Below are positions 2,083-61,848 of a DNA stretch of 64,000 nucleotides, piece after piece. The position numbers were made by a program, and so were the translations under genes. The stretch's first letter is position 1, and each line of letters opens with the position of its first letter. Below the pieces are notes generated by a model, which was not told where the DNA came from, did not search any database, and saw only the letters and a list, made by a program, of their open reading frames with translations. The DNA comes from a bacterium (GTDB lineage Bacteria; Patescibacteriota; Patescibacteriia; JAACEG01; JAGUWE01), in assembly GCA_043798995.1 (NCBI GenBank), contig JAZDOD010000008.1, forward strand, positions 25,327 through 89,326. The letters run 5' to 3'.

Positions 2083-2175
2083 TAGCCAAGATTAGCAAAT
2101 TTTCTTCTGTGGAACTCGCCCCGCCTTTGGCGGGGCTCAAACAATCCTCGTGCGAAAATTTGCCAATCTTGGCTT
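2083..2175 (+). repeat. Family-1 structured element, copy 1; candidate ncRNA or REP-like element
   Basis: Outer stem agccaagattagcaaatttt / aaaatttgccaatcttggct. Conserved core ATTTTCTTCTGtGGAACTC, then hairpin gccccgcctttggcggggc, then TCAAACAATCCTCGTGCGAAAAT. Homologous copies lie at 8554 and 14521. Confidence 0.6.
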
Positions 2176-2212
2176 CGGCGTCCCTTTTATTCATCATCAT
2201 TTTAACACCCTC

Positions 2213-2241
2213 TTGACAAAGAAGCAACAAGGTGATAAGAT
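2213..2241 (+). promoter_or_regulatory. Sigma70-like promoter: TTGACA, 17-nt spacer, TAAGAT
   Basis: TTGACA at 2213-2218, a 17-nt spacer and TAAGAT at 2236-2241. It sits upstream of the 2306 gene, whose RBS is AAGGAGG. Confidence 0.35.
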
Positions 2242-2305
2242 AAGAAGTTAATAAGGAGCTCTTTTTATTTTAGTACAAACCAATTACAAAACAAGGAGGT
2301 TAAAG

Positions 2306-2926
2306 ATGAGTCAATTAGTTACAAAAAAAAGGAAAGATAAGGAAGAGTTGGAAATGTTATTTTATAATCAGTGGTTAATGCTGAAGAAACGCGGTTGCCC
2401 CAAGCAGATTTTGGAATTTTTTAATAATCAGAAAAACGAGGTTGTTTCCGTTGCCAGCCGGATTTCATTTACCAAAGGCAATCTCCCTATTCTTTTAGTT
2501 CTTCCCCGGACTTCTCTAACTATTCATACTCAGATGACAATGGTGCGAAATGGCAAAATCAAAGGTTATACTATGATTGATCCTGTCGGGGTTTTTGAGA
2601 TGATTAAAACTCCCTCACGGCCATATTATCTTTTTGATGTAGAAAACGGCCGGGAAACCCTTGGCCAAAGCCCTGAAAAAGCCGAAAAGATAATTAAAAA
2701 ACAAAGACGCCTTTGTTCAACAGAAGTAGAAATTATTAACCTGGCTCTCCAAACCAATGTTTTAAAAAGACATTACCTTGACGCTACTGGCTGCCGCTAC
2801 ATTGATGAATCAAAAGTTCCCTATCTAGGCATGATAAAAGATAAACCAATTCTTCACTGGTATCGTTTAAAAAACGGCCATCCTTTCTGGGGTTCGCCTT
2901 CTTGTGGTAAACGTTTAGCACTTTAA
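2306..2926 (+). CDS. Hypothetical protein
   Basis: 206-aa ORF with a strong RBS (caaggagguuaaag ATG). I recognise no motifs. Confidence 0.6.
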   Translation: MSQLVTKKRKDKEELEMLFYNQWLMLKKRGCPKQILEFFNNQKNEVVSVASRISFTKGNLPILLVLPRTSLTIHTQMTMVRNGKIKGYTMIDPVGVFEMIKTPSRPYYLFDVENGRETLGQSPEKAEKIIKKQRRLCSTEVEIINLALQTNVLKRHYLDATGCRYIDESKVPYLGMIKDKPILHWYRLKNGHPFWGSPSCGKRLAL

Positions 2927-2937
2927 ATATTATTTAA

Positions 2938-2978
2938 AGGGGTAGATTAACCAAATTCTACCCCTTTTCTTTTTTTAG
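2938..2978 (+). terminator. Rho-independent terminator
   Basis: Hairpin aggggtaga ... tctacccct followed by a T-run (ttttcttttttt). Confidence 0.5.
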
Positions 2979-3021
2979 TTGTCAAAAGAAGAAATTTAAA
3001 CTAAAATAAAGTAAGGAAATT

Positions 3022-4626: not shown

Positions 4627-4647
4627 GATTTATGATTTAAGAATTTT

Positions 4648-5250
4648 ATGGATAAAGATAATTTAAAAAGATGGCATAAGCGAATCAGGATAATTTTAAT
4701 TATTATTCCAATTTTAACTTTCATTTGGCTGGTCAACAAAAACCTTGTTCCTTCGGGAAAACTCTCGGCAAATTATAATTTACAAGAACTTTCTCCTTAT
4801 ATTAGTCGGCTTTATCCGGCTGGACGAGTTTTGGGCGTTGAACAAAGTAAAAACGGCGATTATTATCAGTCAATTGTCATTGACCCGGTTTATTTTAAAG
4901 TTTATTTGCCAGTAAGTTTTGAGCGTGCTAAAATTATTTTAAAATTTCAAACGAATAAAGTTAATAATTTACGCCTTGGCTATCAAATCGGCCCTGACTT
5001 TCAATATTATTTTAAAAATGTTGTGCCGATTAAAAGAGAAGGCGGGTGGCTGATGTCCGAGGTTGATTTTAATTTAGCCAACGCTTATATTAAAGATAAT
5101 AAACTAAAATTTGCCATCTCCTCGCCCCGGCTTGATGAAACTGAAGGAGAGATTAAAATTAATTCAATTCAAGTGGTTTTAGAAAAAGAACCATTAACAA
5201 TAAAAGATGTGCTAATGTTGATTAAAAAGTTTGTTAAAAAGATTTTGTAA
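4648..5250 (+). CDS. Hypothetical membrane-anchored protein
   Basis: 200 aa with an N-terminal TM helix (IILIIIPILTFIWLV). Confidence 0.5.
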   Translation: MDKDNLKRWHKRIRIILIIIPILTFIWLVNKNLVPSGKLSANYNLQELSPYISRLYPAGRVLGVEQSKNGDYYQSIVIDPVYFKVYLPVSFERAKIILKFQTNKVNNLRLGYQIGPDFQYYFKNVVPIKREGGWLMSEVDFNLANAYIKDNKLKFAISSPRLDETEGEIKINSIQVVLEKEPLTIKDVLMLIKKFVKKIL

Positions 5251-5254
5251 ACTT

Positions 5255-5473
5255 ATGTTTTTCAAAAATTCGGAACAAAAAAAATCAATTAATAAATTTA
5301 TTTTAGAAGTTATTGACGATATTTTTAAAATTTCGGTGGTTACGTTTTTGATTTTTGCTTTGTTTGAACTTTGGCGGCCGGGTTTTGCGGTTAATTATCT
5401 TAATATGAATATGCTTTTAGGATTAGTTTTGGCAAGCGGGATAGTGAGTTTGCTTTTTAATATAAATGATTAG
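5255..5473 (+). CDS. Small membrane protein, 2 TM
   Basis: 72-aa ORF with two hydrophobic helices. The start could be 5231 or 5255. Confidence 0.3.
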   Translation: MFFKNSEQKKSINKFILEVIDDIFKISVVTFLIFALFELWRPGFAVNYLNMNMLLGLVLASGIVSLLFNIND

Positions 5474-5507
5474 TTTATATATTTTATTTAAAATAAATTA
5501 GATTTTT

Positions 5508-5843: not shown

Positions 5844-5871
5844 TAAAAAATTTTTACAAAGGTAAATTTTT

Positions 5872-6330: not shown

Positions 6331-6339
6331 ATTTCATTT

Positions 6340-6460
6340 AATTAAGTCAAAGGTCAAAATTCAAAAGTCAAAAATTCAAGTCAAAAGTTAAAAGTTTTTA
6401 AATTAATTTTGCATTTTGAATTGTCATTTTGCATTTTGATTTTTGCATTTTGAATTTTTT
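6340..6460. repeat. AT-rich degenerate tandem repeats forming an imperfect long palindrome
   Basis: Left half repeats (g/t)tcaaaa about 7 times; right half repeats ttttgca/attttga. The two halves are roughly reverse-complementary. Confidence 0.5.
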
Positions 6461-6856: not shown

Positions 6857-6867
6857 ATTTTAAAATT

Positions 6868-7875: not shown

Positions 7876-8563
7876 GAAAATTTTATTAGGTCTAACCACT
7901 ACGTCGCGTTCTGATTGGCGAAAAAAAATTAAAGAGATAGAATTTTATAATATTAAGGAGATAGCTTTATTCCCAACAGTTTTGTTGCCAGAAGAGAGAA
8001 AAGAATTATATCAATTATTAGAAAAAAGCCCGGTTGAAAAAATTACGCTTGTGCATTTGCGCAGTGATATGGAAATTTGGGAACTTGACTATTTAACAGA
8101 AAGATACAAAACAGAAGTTTTTAATATTCATCCGATTAAAAAGCATCCTTTAAAACATGATTATTCAAAATACGCTGATAAAATTTATATTGAAAATCTA
8201 ACCGAATTACCGCGTATTCCAAATCTTAAAAAATTTGCCGGGCTATGCCTTGATTTCAGCCATTGGGAAGATAAAGCCAGCACTATTGTCGATTACGATA
8301 AAGAAATTCGTTTTCTGATTAAAAAATTTAAAACAGGTTGCTGTCATATTTCAGTGACTAAAAGTTATCTGCAAAAAGATCCAGGTCGGCCGGGGAAGTT
8401 TGAATGTTCATCGCATTGGCTGGATGATTTAAGCGAATTAAATTATATTAAAAAATATTTAGTATTTTTGCCTGAAATAATCAGCATTGAATTAGAAAAC
8501 TCGTTTGTCGAGCAGCTTAAAGCGAAAAAATATTTAGAGAAAATGATAAACAATCAGGGTTAG
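7865..8563 (+). CDS. Hypothetical protein embedded in the rml operon
   Basis: 232 aa, overlapping the rfbB stop by 11 nt. I recognise no motif. Confidence 0.5.
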   Translation: MKGKKILLGLTTTSRSDWRKKIKEIEFYNIKEIALFPTVLLPEERKELYQLLEKSPVEKITLVHLRSDMEIWELDYLTERYKTEVFNIHPIKKHPLKHDYSKYADKIYIENLTELPRIPNLKKFAGLCLDFSHWEDKASTIVDYDKEIRFLIKKFKTGCCHISVTKSYLQKDPGRPGKFECSSHWLDDLSELNYIKKYLVFLPEIISIELENSFVEQLKAKKYLEKMINNQG

Positions 8564-8637
8564 TAAATTTTCTTCTGCGGAACTCACTCGCTTCGCTCGT
8601 TCAGACAATCCTCGTGCGAAAATTTACTGACCCTGAT
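8554..8637 (+). repeat. Family-1 structured element, copy 2
   Basis: Outer stem tcagggttagtaaatttt / aaaatttactgaccctga, which overlaps the stop codon of the upstream ORF. The core is the same as copy 1, ATTTTCTTCTGCGGAACTC…TCAGACAATCCTCGTGCGAAAAT. Confidence 0.6.
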
Positions 8638-8657
8638 TTAAAAGGCATCAATATTTT

Positions 8658-10300: not shown

Positions 10301-10317
10301 AATTGTAGTTAAAAATA

Positions 10318-10424
10318 AAGGGTATTAAACCCTTTGATATCAGCGCCTGCCTGCGCAGGCAGGCTCGTTCGGAAATGAATCCGCCAGCTGGCGGATTCAT
10401 TTCTCTCGCTTGCTTGATAATAAA
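10318..10424 (+). repeat. Family-2 mosaic palindromic element, copy A (modules M1-M2-M3)
   Basis: aaaccctttgatatcagcGCCTGCCTGCGCAGGCAGGCtcg contains a perfect 20-bp palindrome. It is followed by aatgaatCCGCCagctGGCGGattcatt and ctcgcttgcttgataataaaa. Related copies lie at 17023 and 46862. Confidence 0.6.
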
Positions 10425-14496: not shown

Positions 14497-14520
14497 TTTT
14501 AGTTTGTCAATTTTAAAATT

Positions 14521-14607
14521 AGCCAAGATTAGTTAATTTTCTTCTGCGGAACTCTCCGCCAGCCGGCGGATCAAACAGTCCTCGTGCGAAAATTAGCTAA
14601 TCTTGGC
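14521..14607 (+). repeat. Family-1 structured element, copy 3
   Basis: Outer stem agccaagattagttaatttt / aaaattagctaatcttggc, with G-U compensatory changes relative to copy 1. Same core, with inner hairpin tccgccagccggcgga. Confidence 0.6.
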
Positions 14608-14634
14608 CGTGATAGTTATAAAATAAATAGTTCT

Positions 14635-15409: not shown

Positions 15410-17020
15410 ATGTCTCGTTATATTTTTGTCATTGGGGGTGTGATGTCGGGAGTAGGCAAGGGAATTGCCACTGCTTCTATTGGCAAAATTTTACAAAGCA
15501 AGGGCTTTAAGGTTACGGCCGTTAAAATTGATCCCTATATCAACGTTGACGCCGGCACTATGAACCCGATTGAGCACGGCGAAGTTTTTGTCACCGAAGA
15601 CGGCGATGAAACTGATCAGGATATCGGCAATTATGAACGATTTTTAAATACGGACATTTACCGCGATAACTATATGACCACCGGCCGGGTTTATTTGACT
15701 GTGATCCAGCGGGAGCGCAATTTGGAATATGAAGGCAAATGCGTTGAAGTGGTGCCGCACATTCCCGAAGAGGTGATGAACCGGCTCAAAAAAGTGGCCA
15801 GAAAATCACGGGCCGACTTTGTTATCATTGAAATTGGCGGCACGGTTGGCGAATATCAGAATATGCTTTTTTTGGAAGCAGCCAGAATGATGCATCTTAA
15901 AAATCCGCGCGATATAATGTTCGTGATGGTAAGTTATTTGCCCATTCCCTCAATGATCGGTGAAATGAAAACTAAACCTACGCAATACGCGGTAAGATCG
16001 CTTAATTCCGCCGGTATCCAGCCGGATTTTATTATTGCCCGTTCGCGGTTGCCGCTTGATGAACCGCGCAAAAGAAAAATTTCCACTTTCTGCAATGTGA
16101 CTGAAAATGATGTCATCAGCGCTCCGGATATTGAATCAATTTATGAAGTGCCGCTTAATTTTGAAAAAGAAAAATTAGGCAATAAAATTCTTAAAAAATT
16201 CGGTCTTAGTCCGTGCCGCAGAGATTTAAAAGATTGGCAAAAGATGATCAAGGCGGTCAAAACCGCTAAACGTGAAATCAAAGTCGGCATTGTCGGCAAA
16301 TATTTTGATACCGGCAACTTTACTTTAGCCGATTCTTATATTTCGGTTATTGAAGCGGTTAAACACGCCTGCGCGGTTAATCATTGCAAACCAAAATTTC
16401 ACTGGTTAAGCACCAAAATTTTAGAAAAAGAAGGAACGGATTGCCTTAAAGAAGTTGACGGCGTGATTGTGCCGCAAGGGTGGGGCAGTCGCGGATCCGA
16501 AGGCAAAATCAAAGCTATTCAGTATTGCCGGGAAAATAAAGTGCCGTATTTTGGCCTTTGTTACGGCATGCAGATGGCGGTTATTGAGTTTGCCAGAAAT
16601 GTCTGCGCCATGGAAAGGGCTAATTCAATGGAAGTTGATCCCCAGACGCCAAATCCGGTTATTCATATTATGCCCGATCAGCAAAAATATCTGGAACGCC
16701 GTCAGTACGGCGGCACCATTAGATTAGGCGCCTGGCCCTGCGCTCTGAAAAAGGGAACAAAAATTTTTCAGATTTACAAAAAGAAAGAAATTTCCGAGCG
16801 CCACCGCCACCGCTATGAATTTAATAATGATTACCGCGAAACAATGGAGCAAAAAGGGCTTACCATTGGCGGCACCTCGCCCGATGATAAATTAGTGGAA
16901 GCAGTTGAAATTACAAATCATCCTTTTTTCATCGGCACTCAATTTCATCCAGAATATAAATCGCGGCCATTGGCGCCTCATCCATTATTTGTCGCTTTTA
17001 TTAAGGCCTGTTTAAAATAA
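15410..17020 (+). CDS. pyrG: CTP synthase
   Basis: YIFVTGGVMSGVGKG N-terminus, a glutamine amidotransferase domain with GLCYGMQ and HRHRYEFN. Confidence 0.95.
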   Translation: MSRYIFVIGGVMSGVGKGIATASIGKILQSKGFKVTAVKIDPYINVDAGTMNPIEHGEVFVTEDGDETDQDIGNYERFLNTDIYRDNYMTTGRVYLTVIQRERNLEYEGKCVEVVPHIPEEVMNRLKKVARKSRADFVIIEIGGTVGEYQNMLFLEAARMMHLKNPRDIMFVMVSYLPIPSMIGEMKTKPTQYAVRSLNSAGIQPDFIIARSRLPLDEPRKRKISTFCNVTENDVISAPDIESIYEVPLNFEKEKLGNKILKKFGLSPCRRDLKDWQKMIKAVKTAKREIKVGIVGKYFDTGNFTLADSYISVIEAVKHACAVNHCKPKFHWLSTKILEKEGTDCLKEVDGVIVPQGWGSRGSEGKIKAIQYCRENKVPYFGLCYGMQMAVIEFARNVCAMERANSMEVDPQTPNPVIHIMPDQQKYLERRQYGGTIRLGAWPCALKKGTKIFQIYKKKEISERHRHRYEFNNDYRETMEQKGLTIGGTSPDDKLVEAVEITNHPFFIGTQFHPEYKSRPLAPHPLFVAFIKACLK

Positions 17021-17022
17021 AG

Positions 17023-17128
17023 GGTGTTAAACCCTTTGATATCAGCGCCTGCCTGCGCAGGCAGGCTCGCTCGCCCGCCTAAATTTTTTTCAAAAATTTT
17101 GGTGGGTCTCGCTCTCTTGATAATAAAA
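17023..17128 (+). repeat. Family-2 mosaic palindromic element, copy B (M1-M4-M3)
   Basis: Overlaps the pyrG stop. It contains the 20-bp palindrome GCCTGCCTGCGCAGGCAGGC and the module cgcccgcctaaattttttt…ggtgggtctcgctctcttgataataaaa. Confidence 0.6.
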
Positions 17129-17131
17129 CCT

Positions 17132-20996: not shown

Positions 20997-21043
20997 TTTT
21001 TTTAATGCAGTATTAAAGCATACTGCAGCAAAACAAAATATCT

Positions 21044-21727
21044 ATGAACACAAAAATCAAAACAGGGTTAGGGCTAATAATTATCATAATTCTCGTCACA
21101 ACGATTGGAGTTTTTGTTTGGCAGATTCAGAAAAAAGCTCAAAATCCTACTCAACCCGAGGAACAGCAGTGCACGATGGAAGCCAAAGTATGCCCTGACG
21201 GTTCATCTGTCGGCCGCACTGGACCAAAATGTGAATTTGCGCCGTGCCCGAGCGGAAATGATGTTTCTGACCTTGTTCCGAGCGAAGTCGAGGGATGGCA
21301 AACTTACCGGAATGAGAAGTATGGGTTTGAGTTTAAGTATCCGAATGGCTATGCTATCTATGATGATTATAACGGTTCGCTTGTTTATAATGCATATCCA
21401 AGCAAGAATTTGTTTTTTGTTGGTGAAAATAGGGAAGATAACATTAGATCTCCAATTGATGGCTTAATGTTTTTAGAAAATTCTGAAAGCATGAATAAGG
21501 CAATTGTGAAACTTAAAAAAAGAGATGTTTTAACCGAAGTATTGGAAGAAAAAGAATTGATTATAAATGATATGGCCGGTAAAAAAATTATCTTGACTGC
21601 TGCAATCGGATATAATGATGCTCATTATTTTTTTAGTAAAAATAATAAGAACTTTGAAATAATTTATGATGGTGATAATAAAGTTCATGACCAAATCCTC
21701 TCCACTTTCAAGTTTACCCCGCACTAA
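21044..21727 (+). CDS. Secreted/anchored paralog-family protein A
   Basis: N-terminus MNTKIKTGLGLIIIIILVTTIGVFVWQ is about 90% identical in nucleotides to 21920. Shares the WQTYRNEKYGFEFKYPN domain and the ILSTFKFTP C-terminus. Confidence 0.6.
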   Translation: MNTKIKTGLGLIIIIILVTTIGVFVWQIQKKAQNPTQPEEQQCTMEAKVCPDGSSVGRTGPKCEFAPCPSGNDVSDLVPSEVEGWQTYRNEKYGFEFKYPNGYAIYDDYNGSLVYNAYPSKNLFFVGENREDNIRSPIDGLMFLENSESMNKAIVKLKKRDVLTEVLEEKELIINDMAGKKIILTAAIGYNDAHYFFSKNNKNFEIIYDGDNKVHDQILSTFKFTPH

Positions 21728-21907
21728 AGCTAGACACATAAGTGCGTGGTCATAAAGAGAAGAAATAAAAAGTAACATTATCCCATAGCTGCAGATGCAA
21801 GCTTTTAGTGCGGGGTTTATAGCACCCGAATAGCGGTATGCGAATAGCGCATAACGAAAGCGCGCACTCGAATTAAATTTCTGCGAAAGCGCCCACTCGA
21901 ATAATTT
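21716..21907. promoter_or_regulatory. Structured intergenic region: 15-bp inverted repeat plus two 22-nt direct repeats
   Basis: ccccgcactaaagct … agcttttagtgcgggg, then gcgaaagcgcgcactcgaat / gcgaaagcgcccactcgaat, directly upstream of paralog B. Confidence 0.35.
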
Positions 21908-21919
21908 AATAAATAATTA

Positions 21920-23356
21920 ATGAACACAAAAATTAAAACCGGATTAGGGCTAATAATTATCCTAATCCTCGTCATAACAATCGGAGTTTTTGTGTGGCAG
22001 GCGAGGAAAAAACAACAGGGAACGAGCAATATTGATACTGGGCAGGTGAGCGAACAAGCAGATAATTATCAAAATTCAACCCAAATTGCTAATCCGGCTT
22101 CAGTCTACTGCGAACAGAATGGCGGAAAATCAGAAATTTTGAAAAATGAAAACAGCGAACCGAAGGGTTTTTGTATTTTTCCAGATGGAGTTGTTTGTGA
22201 AGAATGGCAAAATTACAGAGGAGAGTGTAGATTAAGAGATGTAAAAAAGGTTGATACAACTAACTGGAAATTATATCGAAGTGATAAATATGGATTTGAG
22301 TTCAGATATCCAGAAGAATGCGGCCAAGTTCAAGTTTCTGAATCAGAAAATGATTGTGGGCCTAGGTATAATTGCACAGGCAAGACGATGTGCATCAAAT
22401 TTTCTAATGGTAAATGTTTAGTCAGGGGCAGTTCAATTTCTCATGATTGGGAAGGTCCAGCGACAGAAGGTATCCCGCCTTTTTATAAATTTGACGGAAA
22501 CTTATGGACAACAAGATGTGATTTTAATTGTCAAATTATTAATCCCAGTAATAATATTCAGGATGCAAGAGTTCTTGGTTTTATTTTTCCTTGCTATAAA
22601 TCAGGCGAAATGTGTTTTTCGAGTGAATATTTTGAATATAACGCATGGATTAATTATGAAAATGATAAATTTGTTGGTATGAATTTTTTTGTTACGTTGA
22701 GCAATGACCAGATTATTAAACAAACAAGAGAGGCGCATATATTATATACCGATAGCCAAGACGAAGAATCTTATAAAAGGCTTAGAAATATTTTTGAAAA
22801 AACCGTTTTAAATGATCAGAATTTAAACTTTCAAATGGATTTAATAAGCGGCATTGCACAAACTTTTCATAATTATTATTTTGATAATTGGCAAACTTAT
22901 CGGAATGAGAAGTATGGGTTTGAGTTTAGGTATCCAAATGATTGGGTTATAAATACGAATAATTCTCAAAGAATTACCTTAAATAGTTCTGAAAATGAAC
23001 AAAACAAGAAGGATATAGAGAGTGGTAAAATGTATGGGGAGGGGTATTTAGAAGATATAATATTTTCATATTATAATAGTTTGTTAGATGAGCCAGAAAA
23101 TTCAGGGAACAACATTAATGCCAAAACTCTTGAAGAATTCGTTAATAAAAATCAGTTAATTTCAAATAAAGAAAAGATAAATTTTTCAGGTGATATTGCT
23201 TGGTCAATGACCCGCGGCGGATTTGGGGCATATTATACAATTCTTGACGTTCATAATGAGCATCTTTATGAAATTATGTTTGGCAGGAAAAGTAATAAAT
23301 CCGATTTATCGGCAACAGAAAACCAAATCCTCTCCACTTTTAAATTTATCCCTTAA
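21920..23356 (+). CDS. Secreted/anchored paralog-family protein B, carrying an internal domain duplication
   Basis: Same N- and C-termini as 21044. Two copies of the YGFEF(R)YP domain, at about 22262 and 22888; the second is about 90% identical in nucleotides to the paralog A copy. Confidence 0.6.
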   Translation: MNTKIKTGLGLIIILILVITIGVFVWQARKKQQGTSNIDTGQVSEQADNYQNSTQIANPASVYCEQNGGKSEILKNENSEPKGFCIFPDGVVCEEWQNYRGECRLRDVKKVDTTNWKLYRSDKYGFEFRYPEECGQVQVSESENDCGPRYNCTGKTMCIKFSNGKCLVRGSSISHDWEGPATEGIPPFYKFDGNLWTTRCDFNCQIINPSNNIQDARVLGFIFPCYKSGEMCFSSEYFEYNAWINYENDKFVGMNFFVTLSNDQIIKQTREAHILYTDSQDEESYKRLRNIFEKTVLNDQNLNFQMDLISGIAQTFHNYYFDNWQTYRNEKYGFEFRYPNDWVINTNNSQRITLNSSENEQNKKDIESGKMYGEGYLEDIIFSYYNSLLDEPENSGNNINAKTLEEFVNKNQLISNKEKINFSGDIAWSMTRGGFGAYYTILDVHNEHLYEIMFGRKSNKSDLSATENQILSTFKFIP

Positions 23357-37214: not shown

Positions 37215-37247
37215 AAGCATCGGATTTTCCGATGCTTATTTTTTTTG
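37215..37247 (+). terminator. Rho-independent terminator of rnhA
   Basis: aagcatcgga tttt ccgatgctt followed by attttttttg. The palindrome gctacggggttgaccccgtagc lies immediately downstream. Confidence 0.5.
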
Positions 37248-37372
37248 CTACGGGGTTGACCCCGTAGCAAATCCCAGCGGAGAATTTTTAAAATTTTGAG
37301 CCAATTTAAGGCGAAGCCGCCTGACGGCTTTATTCTAATTCTTAGCGAATTTTTTTTAGAATTGCTACGGGG

Positions 37373-37401
37373 TTGACAAAATCGGTTATTTATGCTACAA
37401 T
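37373..37401 (+). promoter_or_regulatory. Near-consensus sigma70 promoter: TTGACA, 17 nt, TACAAT
   Basis: TTGACA at 37373-37378, a 17-nt spacer and TACAAT at 37396-37401. Confidence 0.55.
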
Positions 37402-37626: not shown

Positions 37627-38184
37627 ATGAATGAGATGATGGGTGAAAAAGAAGTGGTTGAGAAAGACCACAGTCAAGAATTTTTCTGTATGTTTTGTCC
37701 CGAGAAGCCAGGGGTGGCTTGGAGATCACTGGCCTTGACTCGCGGACCAAAGGGTGAGTATATTATAACCCCGATTTGCAATGATTGCCTTGGAGGAGCG
37801 ATCGAGGTTGCTAAAAGGGAGAGGCGATTTCTCCCGCATTACCCCGTTCAGGAGTCGGTTCAAAGGGTAGCCGAACTTAACACTCGGTTAGGCGAGCCAA
37901 TGGTTTGCGAAATTTGTTTTCAGGAGCGCTTCATAGAGTTTTCCACGGGCGTTGTGCAGGATGGCAATGGTCATTACCGCGCCCAGAGAACTTGCTGTTT
38001 TTGTAAGGCAACCCTTGAAGAGAAGAATGAAAGGATTCACTGGTTCAAAAAGACACAGGAGATCGCGGAGGAAAAAAATCGTCGCATAGCCCAAGCAACT
38101 CAGGTAGTGGCCAACTATAGCCAGCCATTCAACAGGCCGCGCGTTAGCCGCGATAACGGCAAAAAAGACCAGTACAGGAAGTAA
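37627..38184 (+). CDS. Cys-rich putative zinc-ribbon protein (function unknown), GC-rich relative to neighbours
   Basis: Strong RBS aaaaggaggtttttgaa ATG. Cys pairs CMFCPE, CNDC, CEIC and CCFC. By eye the gene is about 50% GC against about 35% for the flanks, with different codon usage (AGG, CTC, GCC frequent). Confidence 0.55.
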   Translation: MNEMMGEKEVVEKDHSQEFFCMFCPEKPGVAWRSLALTRGPKGEYIITPICNDCLGGAIEVAKRERRFLPHYPVQESVQRVAELNTRLGEPMVCEICFQERFIEFSTGVVQDGNGHYRAQRTCCFCKATLEEKNERIHWFKKTQEIAEEKNRRIAQATQVVANYSQPFNRPRVSRDNGKKDQYRK

Positions 38185-38266: not shown

Positions 38267-38687
38267 ACTCAGGTAAGTGGATGATCGCTCTCGTTTTTAA
38301 AAAGCGAGAGAGGAAAGTCCGAACACTCTCCGCTTTAGCGGAGAAGTAGGCAGTGGATAACGCCCACCGGAAGCAAGTTTAAGTTAAGAATGACTCTTAA
38401 GAGTTTTTGACTTAATCCCAAGTCCAGGGAAAGTACCACAGAAACTAAACCGCCCGCCTAAATTTTTTAAAATTTAGGCGGGTAAGGGTGAAAAGTGAAG
38501 GAGTAAAACCCTTCTCTCAGCGTGGTGACGCGCTTGAGTGGCAAACCCTGCCTGGTGCAAGAGCAAGTTTTCCCGCCGATGAGGCGGGGAAGGTAGCTCG
38601 CTTGAGTCCGACGGCAACGTCGGACCTAGATAGATGATCATCCCGCCGATGAGGCGGAACAGAATTCGGCTTATAGCTTGCCTGAGT
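38267..38687 (+). ncRNA. rnpB: RNase P RNA, bacterial type A
   Basis: P1 pairs actcaggtaag with cttgcctgagt. P4 5' strand GAGGAAAGUCCG. Also …UAACGCC…, ACAGAAAC…AACCGCC, GGUAAGGGUGAAAAGUG…GUAAAACCC, CUAGAUAGAUGAUCAUCC, and P4 3' strand ACAGAAUUCGGCUUAUAG. All match the type A consensus. Confidence 0.8.
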
Positions 38688-38736
38688 AACAATAAAACAT
38701 TGGTTAAAAACCAATGTTTTATTGTTTTTGACTTAA
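38688..38736 (+). terminator. Rho-independent terminator of rnpB
   Basis: aacaataaaacattggtt aaaa accaatgttttattgtt followed by tttga. Confidence 0.6.
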
Positions 38737-41234: not shown

Positions 41235-42716
41235 ATGGATTTTAAAGGTAAAAAAATAATCGTCATGGGTCTTGGTATTCTTGGTGGCGGAGTGGCAGTG
41301 GTAAAATGGCTGGCTAAAAAAGGAGCCGAGCTAACCGTGACTGATTTGAAAAATAAAAAAGAACTAAAAAATTCAATCACCAAATTAAAAGATTTAAAAA
41401 TTAAATATGTTTTAGGCCGGCATCGCGAAGACGATTTTAAAAAAGCTGATTTGATTATTCAAAATCCGGCCGTGCCGGCCGATTCAGAATATTTAAAAAT
41501 AGCGCGGGAGTCAGCCGTGCCGATTGAAAATGAAGCCAGTTTATTTTTTAAAATCGTGCCTCAGGACTTAATTATCGGCATTACCGGCACCCGCGGCAAA
41601 TCAACCACCACCACTTTAATTTATCAGATTTTTAAAAAAAAATACCAGTCGGCTTTATGTGGTGGCAATATCAAAGTCAATCCACTCTTTGAAATTATTG
41701 AGCAAGTGAAAAAAGATCCGGTTGTTTTGGAACTCTCTTCGTTTCAGTTAGAGAATTTAGCCGATAGCAAAATCAGTCCGCATTTATCAATTATTACTAA
41801 TATTTTACCCGATCATTTGAATCGTTATAAAAATTTGAAAAATTATATTAACGCCAAAGCTAATATTTTTAATTTTCAAAGCAAAGAAGATTTTGTTGTT
41901 TTAAATTTAGATAACCCTTTAACTAAAAAATTAGGCCAAGACGTTCCCTCGCGGCGTTATTGGTTTTCTGAAAAATATTTTTCCCAGCAAAATGGCGTTT
42001 TCTTGTCTTCGGGCCGGCTAATTTTTAGGCAAAACGGCCAAGAAATCAAAGTTTTAAATGTCAAAGAAATAAAACTGCCCGGCAGTCACAATCTGGAAAA
42101 TATTTTAGCCGCGGTTGCGGCCGCGATGATTTATCAAATACCGGTAAAGCTGATAAGAAAAGCTGTTTCAGAATTTAAAGGTGTGCCCGGCCGACTGGAA
42201 TTAATAAAAGTCATCAAAGGCATTAAATTTTATAATGATACAACCGCCACTATCCCGGAGGCGACAATTGCCGCCCTCGTTACACTCGGGCAGCTCAAAG
42301 ATGAAAATCTCCGCCGAAGGCGGATCTCCGCCAAAGGCGGATGGGCCTCTGGCGCACTCCTCGGGCGGAAAAAATCAAAAGTTAGGAATAAAAATATTGT
42401 TTTGATAGCCGGAGGAGCTGATAAAAAGTTAGATTTTCATTTTTTAGCGCCACAGATTAAAAAATATTGTAAAACCGTGATTTTATTGCCGGGCACGGCG
42501 ACGCCGAAGATTTATAAAGAATTACGAATTACGAATTACGAATTACGAATTATTAATGTTAAAAATATGATCGAAGCCGTTGCCGTTGCTTTTAAATTAG
42601 CGGTAAGCAGTGATATTATTCTTCTCTCACCGGCCGCGGCCAGTTTCGGCTTGTTTAAAAATGAATTTGACAGGGGAGAGCAATATTTAAAGGCAGTTAA
42701 GAAATTAAAATCCTAA
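41235..42716 (+). CDS. murD: UDP-N-acetylmuramoylalanine--D-glutamate ligase carrying in-frame repeat insertions
   Basis: KIIVMGLGILGGGVAVVKWL is the Rossmann fold and GITGTRGKSTTTTLI the P-loop. The C-terminus is LLSPAAASFGLFKNEFDRGEQY. Insertions: two tandem CCGCC-N4-GGCGG hairpins (42313-42352) and a 7-nt (gaattac) x5 repeat (42519-42553). Confidence 0.85.
   Translation: MDFKGKKIIVMGLGILGGGVAVVKWLAKKGAELTVTDLKNKKELKNSITKLKDLKIKYVLGRHREDDFKKADLIIQNPAVPADSEYLKIARESAVPIENEASLFFKIVPQDLIIGITGTRGKSTTTTLIYQIFKKKYQSALCGGNIKVNPLFEIIEQVKKDPVVLELSSFQLENLADSKISPHLSIITNILPDHLNRYKNLKNYINAKANIFNFQSKEDFVVLNLDNPLTKKLGQDVPSRRYWFSEKYFSQQNGVFLSSGRLIFRQNGQEIKVLNVKEIKLPGSHNLENILAAVAAAMIYQIPVKLIRKAVSEFKGVPGRLELIKVIKGIKFYNDTTATIPEATIAALVTLGQLKDENLRRRRISAKGGWASGALLGRKKSKVRNKNIVLIAGGADKKLDFHFLAPQIKKYCKTVILLPGTATPKIYKELRITNYELRIINVKNMIEAVAVAFKLAVSSDIILLSPAAASFGLFKNEFDRGEQYLKAVKKLKS
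42519..42553 (+). repeat. Heptanucleotide tandem repeat (gaattac) x5 inside murD
   Basis: gaattacgaattacgaattacgaattacgaattat encodes ELRITNYELRII in frame. Confidence 0.6.
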
Positions 42717-42729
42717 ATCCTAAGCACTA

Positions 42730-42885
42730 AATCCCAAACAATATCTAAATTCCAAATTATAAATAACAAACGGTTTGGAATTTAATAATTAGAATTTGTC
42801 TCCCTTTGGGAGATCCCCCGTAGGGGGAAAATTTATTTAGGATTTGTTTAGAATTTAGGATTTCGTGTTTAGAATTTAATTTTTT
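42730..42885. repeat. Low-complexity intergenic region with two adjacent GC hairpins (family-3)
   Basis: aaatcc(t/c)aa and ttagaattt / ttaggattt repeats. tctccctttgggaga and tcccccgtaggggga lie at 42799-42828. Confidence 0.4.
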
Positions 42886-46833: not shown

Positions 46834-46861
46834 ATAGTTAACTAGTAGCCAATCCAGTTAG

Positions 46862-47050
46862 TGATTCCGCCGAGTGGCGGATTACTACATGGTAAACGCT
46901 ACTAGTTTTTTTATTATCAAGCGAGCGAGACCCACCAAAGTTTTTGAAAAAAATTTAGGCGGGCGAGCGAGCCTGCCTGCGCAGGCAGGCGCTGATATCA
47001 AAGGGTTTTATTATCAAGCAAGCAAGAGTTATGAATCCGCCAACACATGA
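46862..47050 (-). repeat. Family-2 mosaic palindromic element, composite copy C (reverse orientation, nested modules)
   Basis: gtgattCCGCCgagtGGCGGattact (M2), then the reverse complement of copy B (ttattatcaagcgagcgagacccacc…aaaaaaatttaggcgggcgagcgagCCTGCCTGCGCAGGCAGGCgctgatatcaaagggttt), then a second rcM3 (ttattatcaagcaagcaag) and partial M2 (atgaatccgcc). Confidence 0.6.
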
Positions 47051-53301: not shown

Positions 53302-54603
53302 ATGTCAAGCTTTAAAAAGAAAATTGTAAAGGTTCTCAAAGTCCCCGGTGTTTATATTTTCTTCGCCAAAGGCGAATCCGCCTCTGGCGGAAAAGATAAA
53401 CGGGGCGAGATTTTATATATTGGTAAAGCAGCGAATCTTCATTCTCGCGTCTCCTCTTATCTCACCGGTCCTCATGATACCAAAACTGAAAAAATGATAT
53501 CGCAAATTGCTAAAGTTGATTACCAAAAAACCGATTCAGTTTTGGAAGCTTTGATCCTGGAAGCCAACTTGGTTAAAAAATATCAGCCGAAATATAATGT
53601 TAAATTAAAGGATGACAAGTCATTTTCATATTTTGCTATTACTAAAGAAGAATACCCTCGCGTATTGATATTACGCAAGACAGAGTTAGCTAAAGCCCAA
53701 AGCCCAACAAAGCCCAAAGCCCAAAACGATAATTTAAAATTGAAAATTGAAAATTTAAAATTGCGCGCCATTTACGGTCCTTATACCTCAAAAAAACAGA
53801 TGGAATTGGCGCTGCAGATTATAAGAAAGATTTTTTCTTTTCATTCAATGAGCCAAAAAACGGAAAAAGGTTGCTTGGATTTCCAGCTTGGCCGTTGCCC
53901 CGGCCCTTACGCCGGCGCTATTTCTCGCCAAGATTATCAAAAAAATATCCGCGGCATTGAGATGATTTTGGCAGGCAGGAAAAACGATTTACTTAAAAAA
54001 TTAGAAAAAGAAATGAGTTTTTTTTCAAAACATCAGAAATTTGAAAAAGCAGCTCAGCTTCGCAATAAAATTTTTGCTCTTAAGCATATTCAGGATGTGG
54101 CTTTGATTTCGAGAGAAGGATTTGGAAACCTGGTTTCCAAATTGGAAACCAGGTTTCCAAGACGAATTGAGGCCTATGATATTTCCAATATTTTCGGCCA
54201 ATATGCCACCGGCAGTATGATTGTTTTTACTGACGGACAGGTTGACAAATCTGAGTATCGCAAATTTAAGATTAAAACTATTTTCGGCATTGATGATGTC
54301 GGAATGATGAAAGAAGTTTTGCGAAGACGATTGACGCATCAGGAATGGCCCTTACCCAATCTTATTTTCATTGATGGTGGGGTCGGTCAGTTTAATGGAG
54401 CAGTTAGGGTTTTAGAAGAAAAAGGTCTCAAGATTCCGGTAGTGGCTTTAGCTAAAGGCCCAACTCGCCGCGGTGAAAAACTTTTCAGTTCTAAACCGGT
54501 TGATATCAAAATTAATCTAATCAAAGAAATCCGCGACGAAGCCCATCGCTTTGCCATTTCGTATCATAGATATTTAAGAAAGAGGGGATTAGCGGGGGGT
54601 TGA
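53302..54603 (+). CDS. uvrC: Excinuclease ABC subunit C, short form lacking the C-terminal (HhH)2 domain and carrying low-complexity insertions
   Basis: GIY-YIG domain GVYIFFAKG…ILYIGKAANLHSRVSSY. UvrBC-binding region QLRNKIFALKHIQ. RNase H-like endonuclease IEAYDISNIFGQ. Only 433 aa. Confidence 0.8.
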   Translation: MSSFKKKIVKVLKVPGVYIFFAKGESASGGKDKRGEILYIGKAANLHSRVSSYLTGPHDTKTEKMISQIAKVDYQKTDSVLEALILEANLVKKYQPKYNVKLKDDKSFSYFAITKEEYPRVLILRKTELAKAQSPTKPKAQNDNLKLKIENLKLRAIYGPYTSKKQMELALQIIRKIFSFHSMSQKTEKGCLDFQLGRCPGPYAGAISRQDYQKNIRGIEMILAGRKNDLLKKLEKEMSFFSKHQKFEKAAQLRNKIFALKHIQDVALISREGFGNLVSKLETRFPRRIEAYDISNIFGQYATGSMIVFTDGQVDKSEYRKFKIKTIFGIDDVGMMKEVLRRRLTHQEWPLPNLIFIDGGVGQFNGAVRVLEEKGLKIPVVALAKGPTRRGEKLFSSKPVDIKINLIKEIRDEAHRFAISYHRYLRKRGLAGG

Positions 54604-58607: not shown

Positions 58608-58627
58608 GAAACCAAAAAGATAAAACA

Positions 58628-58662
58628 AGGCTGACAATCAAATGTTGGCCTTGTTTTTTTAT
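58628..58662 (+). terminator. Candidate intrinsic terminator between convergent genes
   Basis: aacaaggc tgacaatcaaatgtt ggccttgt followed by ttttttt. Confidence 0.4.
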
Positions 58663-58724
58663 GGTTTGAGATCCTGAAATAAACTTGTCCTGATGAAAAT
58701 CAGGACTCAGGATGACACTAGGTG

Positions 58725-60974
58725 TTATTTTATAAAATCTGCGGTGATTTGGTAGAGCTGCTGGTCGCTAAGAAGGTATATCCCTTTATTTTTTTTATTA
58801 ACAGTAAAATCTTTTAAATTGGAAAATTTTTCGCTGTAATACTGGATAATAAATTTGCCGTTTTTATCGGTAATGACTAATCTTTTTTGCGCCGGTTCCA
58901 GGATATAAATATACTGATCATCAAGTGAGGTATAAATTTTCGTCGGATTAGTCAAGGCCGGCTCTAAATCTTTGATGACAAAATTCTGTTTTTTACCGGT
59001 ATAAAATTTTAAGATTTCGCCGTTATTTTTAAGAAGATAAATGTTTAAGTCAATGGCCATTGAAATCGTGCCACTTAAATCAATATTTTTTTCCGTCAGC
59101 CAATTTTTTGGATTAGTAAAGCCGGCTTCAATTATTTGATATTTATAAATCTGATTATTTTTACTGTCAACTAAATAGAGTTTATTGTTATAGATTTCAA
59201 AATCAGCGATTTCGGCATTGCCCGGCAGCTTTATTTCCTGGGGCGTCAGGGTTTTATCAGCCAAATTTAATTTAGTTAATTTATTATCATCCCGGTGGAG
59301 AAAAAGAATTGCTTTGGCCGACGCGTCATAGGTTGCGGCATTTTTAAATTCACCGATATTAAGCGGAGTGTAATTTATTAGGGAGATTTTTTTATTTGCC
59401 GAATCAATCTGATAAATTTTATTACCCTGGGCCTGCCAAGCAAAGAGTCCGCCGTTATATTCAAGTATTTTATCTATTGAAGAGCCGTTTAATTCCTTGG
59501 CAAAATCCAGAAAAGGGGCATTTTCCAAAATATTGACCAAATGTTTTAGTTTTTGATCCATAGCTTTAATCTCAGCGGACAGCTTTTCAAATTCTTTTTG
59601 CTGGTCAGCATTATTTTTCGGCAGTTGTTCTAAAAGGGTAAGGGCCTCTTTGATGTTTTGCTTGGCTTTAGTTTCATTTTTATAAATCAGGCTTGATTCA
59701 GCCAAGTTTTTCTTTTCCTCAATTTGAGAAACCATTTGTTTGAAAAGATTTTTATTTTTTTCTTGATTTTGGTTCTGGCCCAGGAAGAATAAACTGACAA
59801 TAAAAAGAATAATGAAAATCAGGCCGAAAATCAGCAACGCCTTGCTGAAGCGAGGTATTTTTTTAATGGTAATAATTTTAGTGTCAATTTTTTTCAGTTT
59901 TTGCTGGGACCATTTTTCAACCAATTTATCTCTTTCCGGCTTTTCCATTTTAACAATTGTTTTTGTTTTTTTAAGGGATTTAAAGATTTTTTTAAAGAAC
60001 CGCTTTATTTTTTGCCAAAGAGAATATCTCGGCTGGGATTTTTCAATTTGTTGGGGCAAAGCAGTGATTTTTTCTTGAGCAAGCGGTTTTTTTCTGCCGA
60101 ACAATTTTGCCAAAAAACTTGGCTTTGATTTTTTTTCTTCGGGAAGTCCGGGAATTTTTTTAATTTCCGGCAAGGTCATTTTTTCCGAACCAACTTTGGG
60201 CATAGTCTCAATGCCAATTGTCCGGGTTTCTTCAAAATAATCTTTTTCAAGCCTGAGATTAAAAATAATGAAACTAAAAGGGATTCTTTCATCAACTTCA
60301 ACCAGAAGCGATTTGAAATGTTCAACTAATTTATCCGCCGGCAATGCCGTGGCGGCATTTTTTAATTTATCCAAGGAAATATAATCTAAAATAGCGTAGT
60401 TGCTCAAAACCAAATAATCTTCGTTGGCTAATTTGCCGCTTATAATGTTGGAGAAAAATTTAAAAGGGTTTGGTTTGGCAGTTTCGGGGTCAGCTGATTT
60501 ATTGATCCGAGTAATTTTATAGTTTTTGTAGCCGATTTTTTGGATTAAAATCATTTCAATTTTGCCCGTCTGGCTAAAATGGATATTGAAACTGATTTTT
60601 TTGTCGCTATAATCCGGCTGGATAATGCCGATTATAACATTAATTTTGCCCAGATCAAATAAGGTTTTTTCTCCTTGAATAAGGCGGTGGATTTTTTTAT
60701 TAAGCTGATAAAGAAAATCCTCAAATAAATCTTCTAGGGGTTTATTTACCTCTAAATTTTCTAAAGTATAAAAATTGTTCTGGGCTTCATTGGCAATTAG
60801 ATTAATTATTTTTTGATTAAAATCATCAGTGGCCGGCATTTCAACCAAACAAAAAATTATGCCAATTTTTTTCTCCTGTAAAATTGTGGGAGTGGCAACA
60901 AAAATTTTGCTTAAGGCCTTACTTTCCTGCGGATTGTTGATGATAAAATTGGCTTGGGATAAACGGCTGAGCAT
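58725..60974 (-). CDS. Large hypothetical protein (749 aa): N-terminal alpha/beta domain, central TM and coiled coil, C-terminal beta-propeller-like repeats
   Basis: TM helix ALLIFGLIFIILFIVSLFFLG mid-protein. Coiled coil around 395-480. C-terminal repeats of type NNQIYKYQ, NGEILKFY and QQLYQI. Confidence 0.55.
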   Translation of the reverse strand: MLSRLSQANFIINNPQESKALSKIFVATPTILQEKKIGIIFCLVEMPATDDFNQKIINLIANEAQNNFYTLENLEVNKPLEDLFEDFLYQLNKKIHRLIQGEKTLFDLGKINVIIGIIQPDYSDKKISFNIHFSQTGKIEMILIQKIGYKNYKITRINKSADPETAKPNPFKFFSNIISGKLANEDYLVLSNYAILDYISLDKLKNAATALPADKLVEHFKSLLVEVDERIPFSFIIFNLRLEKDYFEETRTIGIETMPKVGSEKMTLPEIKKIPGLPEEKKSKPSFLAKLFGRKKPLAQEKITALPQQIEKSQPRYSLWQKIKRFFKKIFKSLKKTKTIVKMEKPERDKLVEKWSQQKLKKIDTKIITIKKIPRFSKALLIFGLIFIILFIVSLFFLGQNQNQEKNKNLFKQMVSQIEEKKNLAESSLIYKNETKAKQNIKEALTLLEQLPKNNADQQKEFEKLSAEIKAMDQKLKHLVNILENAPFLDFAKELNGSSIDKILEYNGGLFAWQAQGNKIYQIDSANKKISLINYTPLNIGEFKNAATYDASAKAILFLHRDDNKLTKLNLADKTLTPQEIKLPGNAEIADFEIYNNKLYLVDSKNNQIYKYQIIEAGFTNPKNWLTEKNIDLSGTISMAIDLNIYLLKNNGEILKFYTGKKQNFVIKDLEPALTNPTKIYTSLDDQYIYILEPAQKRLVITDKNGKFIIQYYSEKFSNLKDFTVNKKNKGIYLLSDQQLYQITADFIK

Positions 60975-61076
60975 AAAGTCTTGCGATTAAGAATTGTTTA
61001 TATTATACTATAAATGTGTCAAAAAGACAAAAAGCTTAAAGGTTTAAAGGCAGCTTTCAAACCGAGGTGATAATTT

Positions 61077-61679
61077 ATGCTTGAACAATTATTTGGCTCA
61101 AAAACAAGGGTAAGATTGCTGCGGCTTTTTTTATCCAATCCGGATAACAGTTATTATATTAGGGAGTTAGCAAGAAAAGTCGGAGTGCAAATCAATGCCA
61201 TCAGGCGTGAGCTTATCAATTTGCAAAAAATAGGCCTGCTTAATTCTTACCAGCCGCCGGCAAGCTCAAATCAGGATAAGCTTAAGAATTATTTTAAAGT
61301 GGACACTAATTTTGTTCTTTTTAATGAACTGCGGACTTTATTTTTAAAATCGCAATTATTAATGGAAAGGAAGCTTTTATCCGAAATTGAAAAAGTCGGC
61401 AACATCAGTTATTTGGCTTTAACCGGAACCTTTTTGGGACTGAATAATTCACCAACCGATTTATTAATTATAGGCCGAGTTAATAGGGGAAAATTGGCCA
61501 GTTTGATAAAAAAGTTTGAAAAAGATATGGATTGCGTTATTAATTATACGATAATGAGCCGAGAGGAATTTAAATACCGAAAAGACATAACTGACAAATT
61601 TTTATACCACATTTTAGAAAACAAAAAAATTGTGGTGATTGATAAAATCAAGCAAGAGATTGACCTTGACAAGGAGTAA
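61077..61679 (+). CDS. Winged-HTH domain protein (putative transcriptional regulator)
   Basis: The N-terminus TRVRLLRLFLSNPDNSYYIRELARKVGVQINAIRRELINLQKIGLL is a wHTH pattern. Confidence 0.5.
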   Translation: MLEQLFGSKTRVRLLRLFLSNPDNSYYIRELARKVGVQINAIRRELINLQKIGLLNSYQPPASSNQDKLKNYFKVDTNFVLFNELRTLFLKSQLLMERKLLSEIEKVGNISYLALTGTFLGLNNSPTDLLIIGRVNRGKLASLIKKFEKDMDCVINYTIMSREEFKYRKDITDKFLYHILENKKIVVIDKIKQEIDLDKE

Positions 61680-61746
61680 TGTTTTGTTTAAAATAAGGGA
61701 GTTAAAAAATATAAATCCAAATATCAAAATCCGAATTACAAACCAA

Positions 61747-61848
61747 GCTCAAAACTCAAAATCTAAAACATTTGGCATTGAGATTTTGGATTTTCCGCCA
61801 GAGGCGGATCTGCCCCTGGCACGAGATTTGACATTTGAGCTTTGGATT
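61747..61848. repeat. Long imperfect inverted repeat with an internal CCGCC-N3-GGCGG hairpin, upstream of tRNA-Tyr
   Basis: ccaagctcaaaactcaaaatct … agatttgacatttgagctttgg forms the arms. The loop contains ttccgccagaggcggatct. Confidence 0.35.

Follow-up and report, generated by a model that had tools for sequence, protein, structure and literature searches.

The REPINs of proteobacteria are mobilized by RAYT, a Y1 HUH transposase, and the RAYT gene is typically flanked by repetitive extragenic palindromic sequences (REPs). The palindromic elements of Rickettsia (RPEs) are repeats of ~100 to 150 bp, restricted to that genus, that lie in frame in genes of a reduced, AT-rich genome and leave the open reading frame (ORF) intact. 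REP palindromes carry a GTAG/CGTC tag (PMC3733652). In yeast mitochondria, GC clusters such as GC42 have conserved stems and variable loops, and their units merge and shuffle by a mechanism that is unresolved (PMC4478555). For the mitochondria of sponges, placozoans, and Nematomorpha, two reports describe hairpin repeats that invade the intergenic and sometimes the coding sequence of compact genomes (PMC2800124, PMC6649704). Here we describe a hairpin, TCCGCC-N3-4-GGCGGA, that recurs inside unrelated intergenic elements and in frame in housekeeping genes of a 64-kb stretch (the window) of a metagenome-assembled genome of the candidate phyla radiation (CPR).

This hairpin resembles REPs, bacterial interspersed mosaic elements, and REPINs in being a short, GC-rich, imperfect palindrome that is dispersed, often at the 3′ ends of genes, as single copies, doublets, or clusters, and in that the hairpin, and not the sequence alone, is the apparent functional form. 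It differs from them, however, in several respects. REPs and REPINs are mostly intergenic, whereas about half of the CPR copies (17/33) lie in ORFs and are translated. The CPR units are only 15 to 16 nt long, lack the GTAG/CGTC tag, and were found without a RAYT, and their stem sequence is conserved across very deep lineages. Unlike a REPIN, the tandem pair covaries as two hairpins and not as one. With the yeast GC clusters the hairpin shares GC-rich palindromes in an AT-rich compact genome (37.5% GC in the window), invariant stems, variable loops, and nesting, and no dedicated transposase is known for those clusters (PMC4478555). Its host is, however, bacterial, its units are shorter, there is no consistent AG-type target duplication, and a likeness in sequence would not be expected. 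The likeness to RPEs lies in ORF-preserving, in-frame insertion, which was observed in murD, uvrC, and (twice) valS, but the CPR unit is 15 nt, the inserts are 30 to 87 nt, and the family spans the whole radiation; conservation of the stem at the nucleotide level is demonstrated for the CPR hairpin. The animal mitochondrial repeats differ in occurring in other genomes and in having other sequences. No specific description of the phenomenon in CPR/Patescibacteria was found in the literature.

The TCCGCC hairpin in the window and across CPR genomes

By MurD comparison, the relatives of the window are Patescibacteria/CPR (Falkowbacteria, Buchananbacteria, Moranbacteria, and similar). Its genes are ordinary housekeeping genes, including an mraY-murD-ftsW cluster, uvrABC, rpoD, dnaG, recJ, pilins, RNase P RNA, and tRNA-Tyr, and its GC content is 37.5%, not the approximately 35% given in a preliminary description made from the same DNA.

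The pattern CCGCC-N3-4-GGCGG has 8 matches in the window versus 0.06 expected from 100 dinucleotide-preserving shuffles (maximum, 1), and the strict form TCCGCC-N3-4-GGCGGA has 7 versus 0.01 (starts at 10380, 14555, 42310, 42327, 46866, 53377, and 61794), with a variant, CCCGCC, at 2120. Taken alone, the arms TCCGCC and GGCGGA show no enrichment (52 occurrences against 39 expected), the excess being accounted for by the hairpins. This indicates that the over-represented feature is the paired stem-loop. The core unit consists of a 6-bp stem, TCCGCC/GGCGGA, and a loop of 3 to 4 nt (15 to 16 nt in total), is free of stop codons in all six frames, and is found singly, as tandems of 15 to 17 nt, and nested in other units. 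The recurrence of one hairpin family, inside unrelated intergenic elements and in frame in housekeeping genes, had been proposed in the preliminary description and lies far above chance. The copies listed there are present, most within 0 to 9 nt of their true positions, but the list missed the uvrC double hairpin, the pair at 42799-42828, and the valS copy at 63850-63865. The copies of the family and the gene inserts are as follows (strand is given where assigned; Elements A and B are described below).

2118-2136: hairpin GCCCCGCC-TTT-GGCGGGGC, apex of Element A copy 1 (2082-2175; element fold, −46.3 kcal/mol; z = −8.2)
10372-10403 (core, 10380-10395): 14-bp perfect hairpin GAAATGAATCCGCC-AGCT-GGCGGATTCATTTC, third, variable module of the first copy of Element B, located between convergent genes (z = −7.5)
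14555-14570: TCCGCC-AGCC-GGCGGA, apex of Element A copy 3 (14519-14608)
42300-42386, plus strand: in-frame murD insert of 29 residues, DENLRRRRISAKGGWASGALLGRKKSKVR; the murD ORF (41235-42716) is intact
46866-46881: TCCGCC-GAGT-GGCGGA, tip of a long hairpin (46841-46905) that is followed by T7 (z = −7.5)
53362-53391, plus strand: double hairpin of 30 nt in uvrC, TTCGCC-AAA-GGCGAA plus TCCGCC-TCT-GGCGGA (two 15-nt units), encoding FAKGESASGG
61794-61821: TCCGCC-AGA-GGCGGA (61794-61808) plus degenerate TCTGCC-CCT-GGCA, tip of an AT-rich inverted repeat
63138-63166, minus strand: valS insert of 10 residues, PHRVCSDAGF, hairpin CCCCGCAC...GTGCGGGG of a sister family
63850-63865, minus strand: TCCGTC-AACC-GGCGGA in valS, degenerate family member with one G.U pair in the sense RNA

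For comparison, 80 murD loci of CPR bacteria (~1.1 Mb) were fetched from metagenomes, and copies were counted in these loci plus the window (1.17 Mb). The census gave 33 distinct copies, 16 in the 11% of the sequence that is intergenic and 17 in ORFs (5 of the 17 ascertained through UvrC), so that the intergenic density is ~8 to 12 times the coding density. TCCGCC is the commonest inner stem of GC-rich hairpins in this set (28 cases versus 9 for the next), and the hairpin is absent from the non-CPR loci fetched (L003 to L022).

Loops of 3 nt (AAA, AGA, TCT, TTC, CAA, and others) are usually read in ORFs as S-A-x-G-G. With the 4-nt loops AGCT, AATT, and AGTT, the whole 14- to 16-mer is a perfect or near-perfect palindrome, and other lineages have such copies in MurC, MurD, and a tRNA synthetase, read as P-P-A/V-G-G. 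The unit reads NPPVGG in MurC and NPPAGG in GlyRS. A 30-nt tandem, TCCGCC-MAA-GGCGGA-TCCGCC-TCK-GGCGGA, encoding SAQGGSASGG, is 28/30 identical in two unrelated ORFs of two lineages and is also present in L058. This 30-nt tandem, in the form TCCGCC-NNN-GGCGGA twice, occurs in addition in two viral (IMG/VR) contigs whose GC is much higher, at 53 to 55% (L107, 4886-4915; L108, 390-419). In three loci (L077, L079, and L085) the hairpin lies 8 to 23 nt upstream of a start codon, just after promoter-like AT-rich sequence.

Inserts in UvrC, MurD, and ValS

The uvrC insert falls in a beta-hairpin of the GIY-YIG domain, between VYIF and KDKRGE (by comparison with 1YD6 and 1YCZ). The nearest orthologue (L113; 61% identity) has an empty site, TTC/AAG GAT. 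SAxGG-type inserts are present in the same beta-hairpin in 12 of 120 UvrC homologues, and in five lineages (the window, L109, L110, L111, and L115; protein identity, 58 to 69%) the insert occupies the identical codon position. Unit 2 reads TCC GCC nnn GGC GGA in all five, with the loops TCT, TTG, TCT, TCT, and TAT. Among 81 UvrC columns with an invariant four- or sixfold-degenerate residue, a single codon is used in all five lineages at 6, and 4 of these are the stem codons TCC, GCC, GGC, and GGA, against a background of 2/77. TCC and GGA are, moreover, minority codons in the window genome (14% and 16%). Unit 1 varies in sequence while keeping its pairing: TTCGCC/GGCGAA in the window is TTCGGC/GCCGAA in L109 and L110, a C-G to G-C flip that alters the peptide from AKG to GAA. 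In L111 and L115 unit 1 is partly decayed. With the stem codons frozen, the loops free, and the pair flips compensated, the stem-loop is maintained as a nucleic acid and not as a peptide. Since five lineages share a copy with stems frozen at synonymous sites, this maintenance appears to be active, either by selection or by copy-correction. That a translated hairpin keeps its synonymous sites across deep CPR lineages goes beyond anything in the preliminary description.

In an alignment of 12 double units, 95.8% of the cells are paired, and there are 11 double-sided changes versus 3.2 in shuffles (0/500), with slid controls giving 23 to 49% pairing; because 7 of the 12 were found by similarity to a palindromic consensus, the unbiased sample consists of the five UvrC rows only. 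The covariation fits two separate small hairpins and not a single long one (minimum-energy fold of the window copy). We favor common descent of the insert in the five lineages, as the shared position and the related unit 1 would suggest, and on the sequences compared its arrival in uvrC was neither recent nor confined to one lineage. L112 has a second, independent insertion in UvrC, TCC GCT CAA GGC GGA with a G.U pair, four codons downstream.

In the murD insert, two units spaced 17 nt apart (42310-42324 and 42327-42341) are followed by a degenerate one (42342-42356) and by a single 3′ arm, GGCGGA (42364-42369); one of the units is translated in another frame, as RRRR. The insert lies between domains, where solved MurD structures have 2 to 3 residues. 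It is absent from the MurD of L025 (63% identity), which has an A-rich empty site. In the closest relative, L023 (71% identity), the same site holds two copies of the 20-mer GCCTGCCTGCGCAGGCAGGC nested between TCCCGCC and GGCGGA arms. Given these other hairpins between matching outer arms, a simple TCCGCC hairpin was probably present at the murD site in the common ancestor, and the site has probably been filled differently since then in the lineages of the window and L023.

In ValS, the segment PHRVCSDAGF is missing from a 75%-identical orthologue (P0241), and the loop that carries it has 34 residues in the window versus 23 to 25 in most of 120 homologues. The second valS insert, of ~22 residues, contains the degenerate hairpin at 63850-63865 and is a gap relative to residues 472 to 475 of ValRS 1GAX. 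At 63837-63881 (minus strand), a 12-nt direct repeat, CAAAA(A)TCAAAAA, is found on both sides of the degenerate hairpin. The murD and valS segments, absent from the closest orthologues and gapped in solved structures, are thus lineage-specific inserts, as had been suggested in the preliminary description.

The sequence 3′ of the valS hairpin (GGCGGACAAAAATCAAAAAG) resembles that 3′ of the murD insert (GGCGGAAAAAATCAAAAG). A retroposon-like "hairpin plus A-tail" structure, considered because GGCGGAAAAAAT follows the murD inserts of the window, L023, and L024 and the valS copy, is not general: an A-run is found 3′ of 2 of 41 copies and a T-run 5′ of 2 of 41, near background.

Elsewhere in murD (42519-42552), an in-frame heptamer tandem, (GAATTAC) × 4.8, encodes RITNYELRI, which is found at the same place in the distant MurD orthologues P0010 and P0017. 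This suggests that another repeat family may have entered coding sequence.

Intergenic elements and sister hairpin families

The intergenic TCCGCC copies are not free-standing but form the tips of longer structures. Element A is a long hairpin of ~92 nt with a stem of ~20 bp, present in three intergenic copies (2082-2175, 8550-8640, and 14519-14608) with fold z-scores of −6 to −8. Its inner sequence is conserved (TTCTTCTGYGGAACTC ... TCARACARTCCTCGTGCGAAAAT), the apex is different in each copy, and copy 2 has compensating changes in the outer stem. Element A may be a structured RNA or else a small mobile element, and locus L028 has a simpler look-alike near position 126.

Element B strings several hairpins together through constant linkers (10308-10420, 17010-17130, and, in reverse, 46905-47050). 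Its modules are, in order, AAAGGGTrTTAAACCCTTT, GCCTGCCTGCGCAGGCAGGC, and a variable hairpin that is wholly different between copies and is flanked by direct repeats of CTCGCTCG. In both Element A and Element B, hairpins have been swapped from copy to copy. Ahead of the third copy of Element B lies a partial unit, as in a tandem. As a universal target duplication, the CTCGCTCG repeats were rejected, being seen only in Element B and at one locus (L028).

Two copies of the TCCGCC hairpin sit on other structures. The long hairpin at 46841-46905, with its T7, looks like the terminator of a radical-SAM gene. Intrinsic terminator was nevertheless rejected as the general identity of the hairpin, given that a T-run follows 0 of 41 copies and that only 46841-46912 has T7. 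The AT-rich inverted repeat that carries 61794-61821 spans 61700-61860, upstream of tRNA-Tyr (61868-61951).

The preliminary description had related CCCCGC-type repeats to the TCCGCC hairpin. These repeats (21717/21802, 37244-37271, and 62613/62750) are present. The CCCCGCAC...GTGCGGGG repeats (21717/21802, 62613/62750, and valS 63138-63166) and GCCTGCCTGCGCAGGCAGGC are sister families, each separate from TCCGCC and not variants of it. Sister-type hairpins and the elements that contain them are as follows.

10345-10364: GCCTGCCTGCGCAGGCAGGC hairpin, sister family, with identical copies at 17047-17066 and 46971-46990
17074-17106, plus strand: hairpin CCCGCC-TAAATTTTTTTCAAAAATTT-TGGTGGG, variable module of Element B copy 2, with direct repeats of CTCGCTCG on either side; present also, inverted, at 46931-46963
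21717-21815: intergenic element bounded by CCCCGCACTAAAG / CTTTTAGTGCGGGG (21717/21802)
42799-42828: tandem pair of sister type, TCTCCC-TTT-GGGAGA / TCCCCC-GTA-GGGGGA, with a 15-nt period (z = −4.7), tip of an AT-rich inverted repeat (42716-42885)
62613-62763: intergenic element whose ends are the inverted repeat CCCCGCACCTTTCC / GGAAAGGTGCGGGG (62613/62750)

The terminal 8-mer of the element at 21717 is common to the element at 62613 and the valS hairpin. Inside the element at 62613, a hairpin, CCCCGCAGTAGAGCG-CTT-CGCTCTCACTACGGGG (62676-62709), is nested in the loop of a smaller AAGGCG..CGCCTT hairpin and is flanked, within 62664-62718, by a direct repeat, GCTTCG/CTTCG; the arrangement resembles that of a hairpin loop that has received an insertion and had its target duplicated. 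Other inserts in UvrC and MurD encode peptides typical of further GC-hairpin families (RLRGND, PACLRRQA, and SPSPxGEG). With the Rfam covariance models, no match was obtained on any hairpin or on Elements A and B, even at E ≤ 1.

A perfect hairpin, TTTGCTACGGGGTTGACCCCGTAGCAAA, is found at 37244-37271, with a half copy, TTGCTACGGGGTTGAC, at 37363-37377; the TTGAC of the half copy overlaps a promoter-like TTGACA-N17-TACAAT upstream of the ORF at 37627-38184. The RNase P RNA (38269-38689) is 421 nt long, compared with 367 positions in the model, and has extra hairpins: TCTCCGC-TTTA-GCGGAGA, an insert of 49 nt, an extended P12, and two CCGCC-GATGA-GGCGG hairpins. The RNase P RNAs of L023 and L025 have different insertions at the same positions. 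A 17-nt match, including a T-run, between an Element B hairpin and helix P12 was judged compatible with chance (0.5 to 8 such matches estimated). The adjacent genes at 21044-21727 and 21920-23356 have 82%-identical 5′ ends (21032-21136 versus 21908-22012) and internal WQTYRNEKYGFEF repeats (21296, 22265, and 22889), and probably belong to a recently duplicated secreted-protein family.

Origin and maintenance of the hairpin

The presence and absence of copies among orthologues and the swapping of hairpins between element copies suggest mobility. The reading that we prefer, with somewhat more belief than doubt, is that the hairpin is a modular palindromic repeat comparable to REP elements and to the GC clusters of yeast mitochondria, one that inserts, duplicates, and nests and is either copy-corrected or selected. 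Its active form would be single-stranded and folded, as RNA or as DNA at the replication fork. New copies would arise by hairpin-directed copy-in or by gene conversion, at the tips of existing hairpins and at A-rich, loop-encoding stretches, and arrays would grow by slippage or by template switching between alternating arms. In genes, the survivors would be in-frame, stop-free insertions in tolerant surface loops, the first two of these properties following by construction from a unit that is 15 nt long and contains no stops. The constancy of the stem would mean that a conserved factor recognizes it or that it is continually corrected against the other copies in the genome. A bolder proposal, which we put forward only tentatively and consider possible without expecting it, is that TCCGCC-N3-4-GGCGGA is a CPR-wide, sequence-specific stem-loop signal of a conserved factor, spread and kept uniform by a RAYT-free, hairpin-directed insertion or copy-correction process and tolerated as a "dual-coding" element in essential genes, in which selection or correction would preserve the structure of the nucleic acid and not the peptide.

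Several observations weigh against a mobile repeat. The preliminary description had called the hairpin REP-like and had proposed a search for a RAYT (IS200/IS605 TnpA-like) gene. The resemblance to REPs is reasonable, but the flanks of 41 copies are variable and contain no conserved GTAG/CGTC tag (a GTAG end is found only on the unrelated hairpin at 37244-37271), and no transposase or RAYT/IS200-like ORF is present among the ORFs of the window. A phmmer search for Y1 transposases among 4008 ORF segments of all loci (1.6 Mb, 1 to 2% of each genome) likewise gave no match, which is a weak negative. A consistent target-site duplication was not found, and none is present at uvrC, the suggestive direct repeats being those at Element B (CTCGCTCG), 62664-62718 (GCTTCG), and valS 63837-63881 (12 nt). 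The insert-bearing UvrCs never form a clade in neighbor-joining trees (100 bootstraps), and because the tree is mostly unresolved, one old gain with losses and several gains are both possible. The long-term conservation of the uvrC copy is no less consistent with a host function than with a selfish element. The closest relatives are only 61 to 75% identical in the genes compared.

Two other identities were rejected. An uptake sequence was discarded because the single motif is not over-represented, and a miniature inverted-repeat transposable element because the whole unit is the stem-loop alone, no parent insertion sequence was found, and there is no consistent duplication.

The ORF at 55947-56519 matches the Translin family (Pfam E = 5e−21). 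Translin, which binds single-stranded nucleic acids, is uncommon in bacteria. That this protein is a candidate hairpin binder is speculative.

Among the alternatives, the one that survives best, though we think it unlikely, is a nonmobile, cis-acting host signal, a stem-loop of RNA or single-stranded DNA to which a conserved CPR factor would bind (for example, as an mRNA 5′- or 3′-end stabilizer, a processing site, or a terminator), which selection would place and keep wherever it is useful, ORFs included. The frozen stem codons of the five UvrC lineages, the compensating changes, and the constancy of the stem over distant CPR lineages would all be expected of such a signal, as would the copies just upstream of start codons in L077, L079, and L085 and the copy at 46866 on the tip of a terminator-like hairpin with T7. 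The sites do not, however, share a functional logic: they include an interdomain loop of MurD, a beta-hairpin of UvrC, loops of ValS, the tips of unrelated repeats, and a position upstream of a tRNA. The copies in murD, uvrC, and valS are missing from the closest orthologues, and one slot can hold different hairpins, both in copies of the same element and in the murD of the window compared with that of L023. The tandem and nested arrays, moreover, resemble insertion and expansion and not designed sites.

A mutational by-product is a still more doubtful account. Here, template switching or fold-back synthesis during replication would make palindromes de novo, and the recurrence of TCCGCC would be convergence, seeded, for example, by the common Gly-Gly codons GGC GGA. 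Among 75 CPR MurDs we found 35 lineage-specific inserts of at least 6 residues, of which 16 (expected, 1.75) have a better fold than 95% of the shuffles made from them and 14 fall in the top 5% of windows of the same gene. Many of these palindromic inserts are unique sequences without a repeat in their own contig. In L090 (murD, 1018-1070) an insert of 8 residues repeats the codons that flank it in inverted orientation, which produces a palindrome of ~50 nt with alternating arms and is a clear instance of a palindrome growing de novo, and arrays with alternating arms are found in murD, uvrC, and L027. Template switching is reported to create hairpins in a single step (10.1101/2023.04.19.537475), and in a survey that gives no explanation the CPR phyla have the highest density of perfect inverted repeats of all phyla (PMC13155455). 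Apart from this account of TCCGCC, that about half of the lineage-specific MurD inserts are palindromes of many different sequences indicates that a general palindrome-generating process is also at work in CPR; these genomes make palindromic insertions de novo as well, in agreement with that ranking. Local templating, however, cannot give the same GC-rich 6-mer stem at unrelated AT-rich sites, both intergenic and coding, in lineages with ~45% MurD identity, and the empty uvrC site, TTC/AAG GAT, holds no seed for the arms. The near-identical 30-mers in unrelated genes and the constancy of the sequence over time are also left unexplained.

We regard it as improbable that a dimeric DNA-binding regulator reads the inverted repeat as a duplex operator, in the manner of an SOS-type box. 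Such an operator would account for the several copies that are perfect palindromes of 14 to 16 bp (TCCGCCAGCTGGCGGA, CCGCCAATTGGCGG), for the invariant half-site, and for the copy within a DNA repair gene, but the neighboring uvrC unit stays paired while a C-G to G-C change alters its half-site, the 3-nt loops are asymmetric, copies lie deep in ORFs and at the tips of long hairpins rather than at promoters, and a tandem spacing of 15 to 17 nt would be odd. Selection for a flexible S-A-x-G-G peptide, which most coding copies do encode, or an artifact of assembly or sequencing deserves hardly any credence: codon identity at four degenerate residues in five lineages, including minority codons, means that peptide selection cannot be the source, a murD unit is read as RRRR and the tetraloop copies as PPAGG, about half of the copies are noncoding, and the motif is present in NCBI, JGI, ENA, and Logan assemblies from different groups.

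A large share of bacterial diversity belongs to the CPR, and how the small genomes of these bacteria change is little understood. One 15-nt hairpin, together with palindromic inserts in general, accounts for a large share of the length variation of MurD, UvrC, and ValS. Where SAxGG, PPAGG, or RRRR occurs in a CPR protein, the peptide is a footprint of this repeat and should not be taken as a functional motif, and the hairpin repeats can mislead gene callers and alignments. If a dedicated factor recognizes the hairpin, this would be a new mechanism of mobility or maintenance and would offer a handle on regulation in organisms that resist cultivation.

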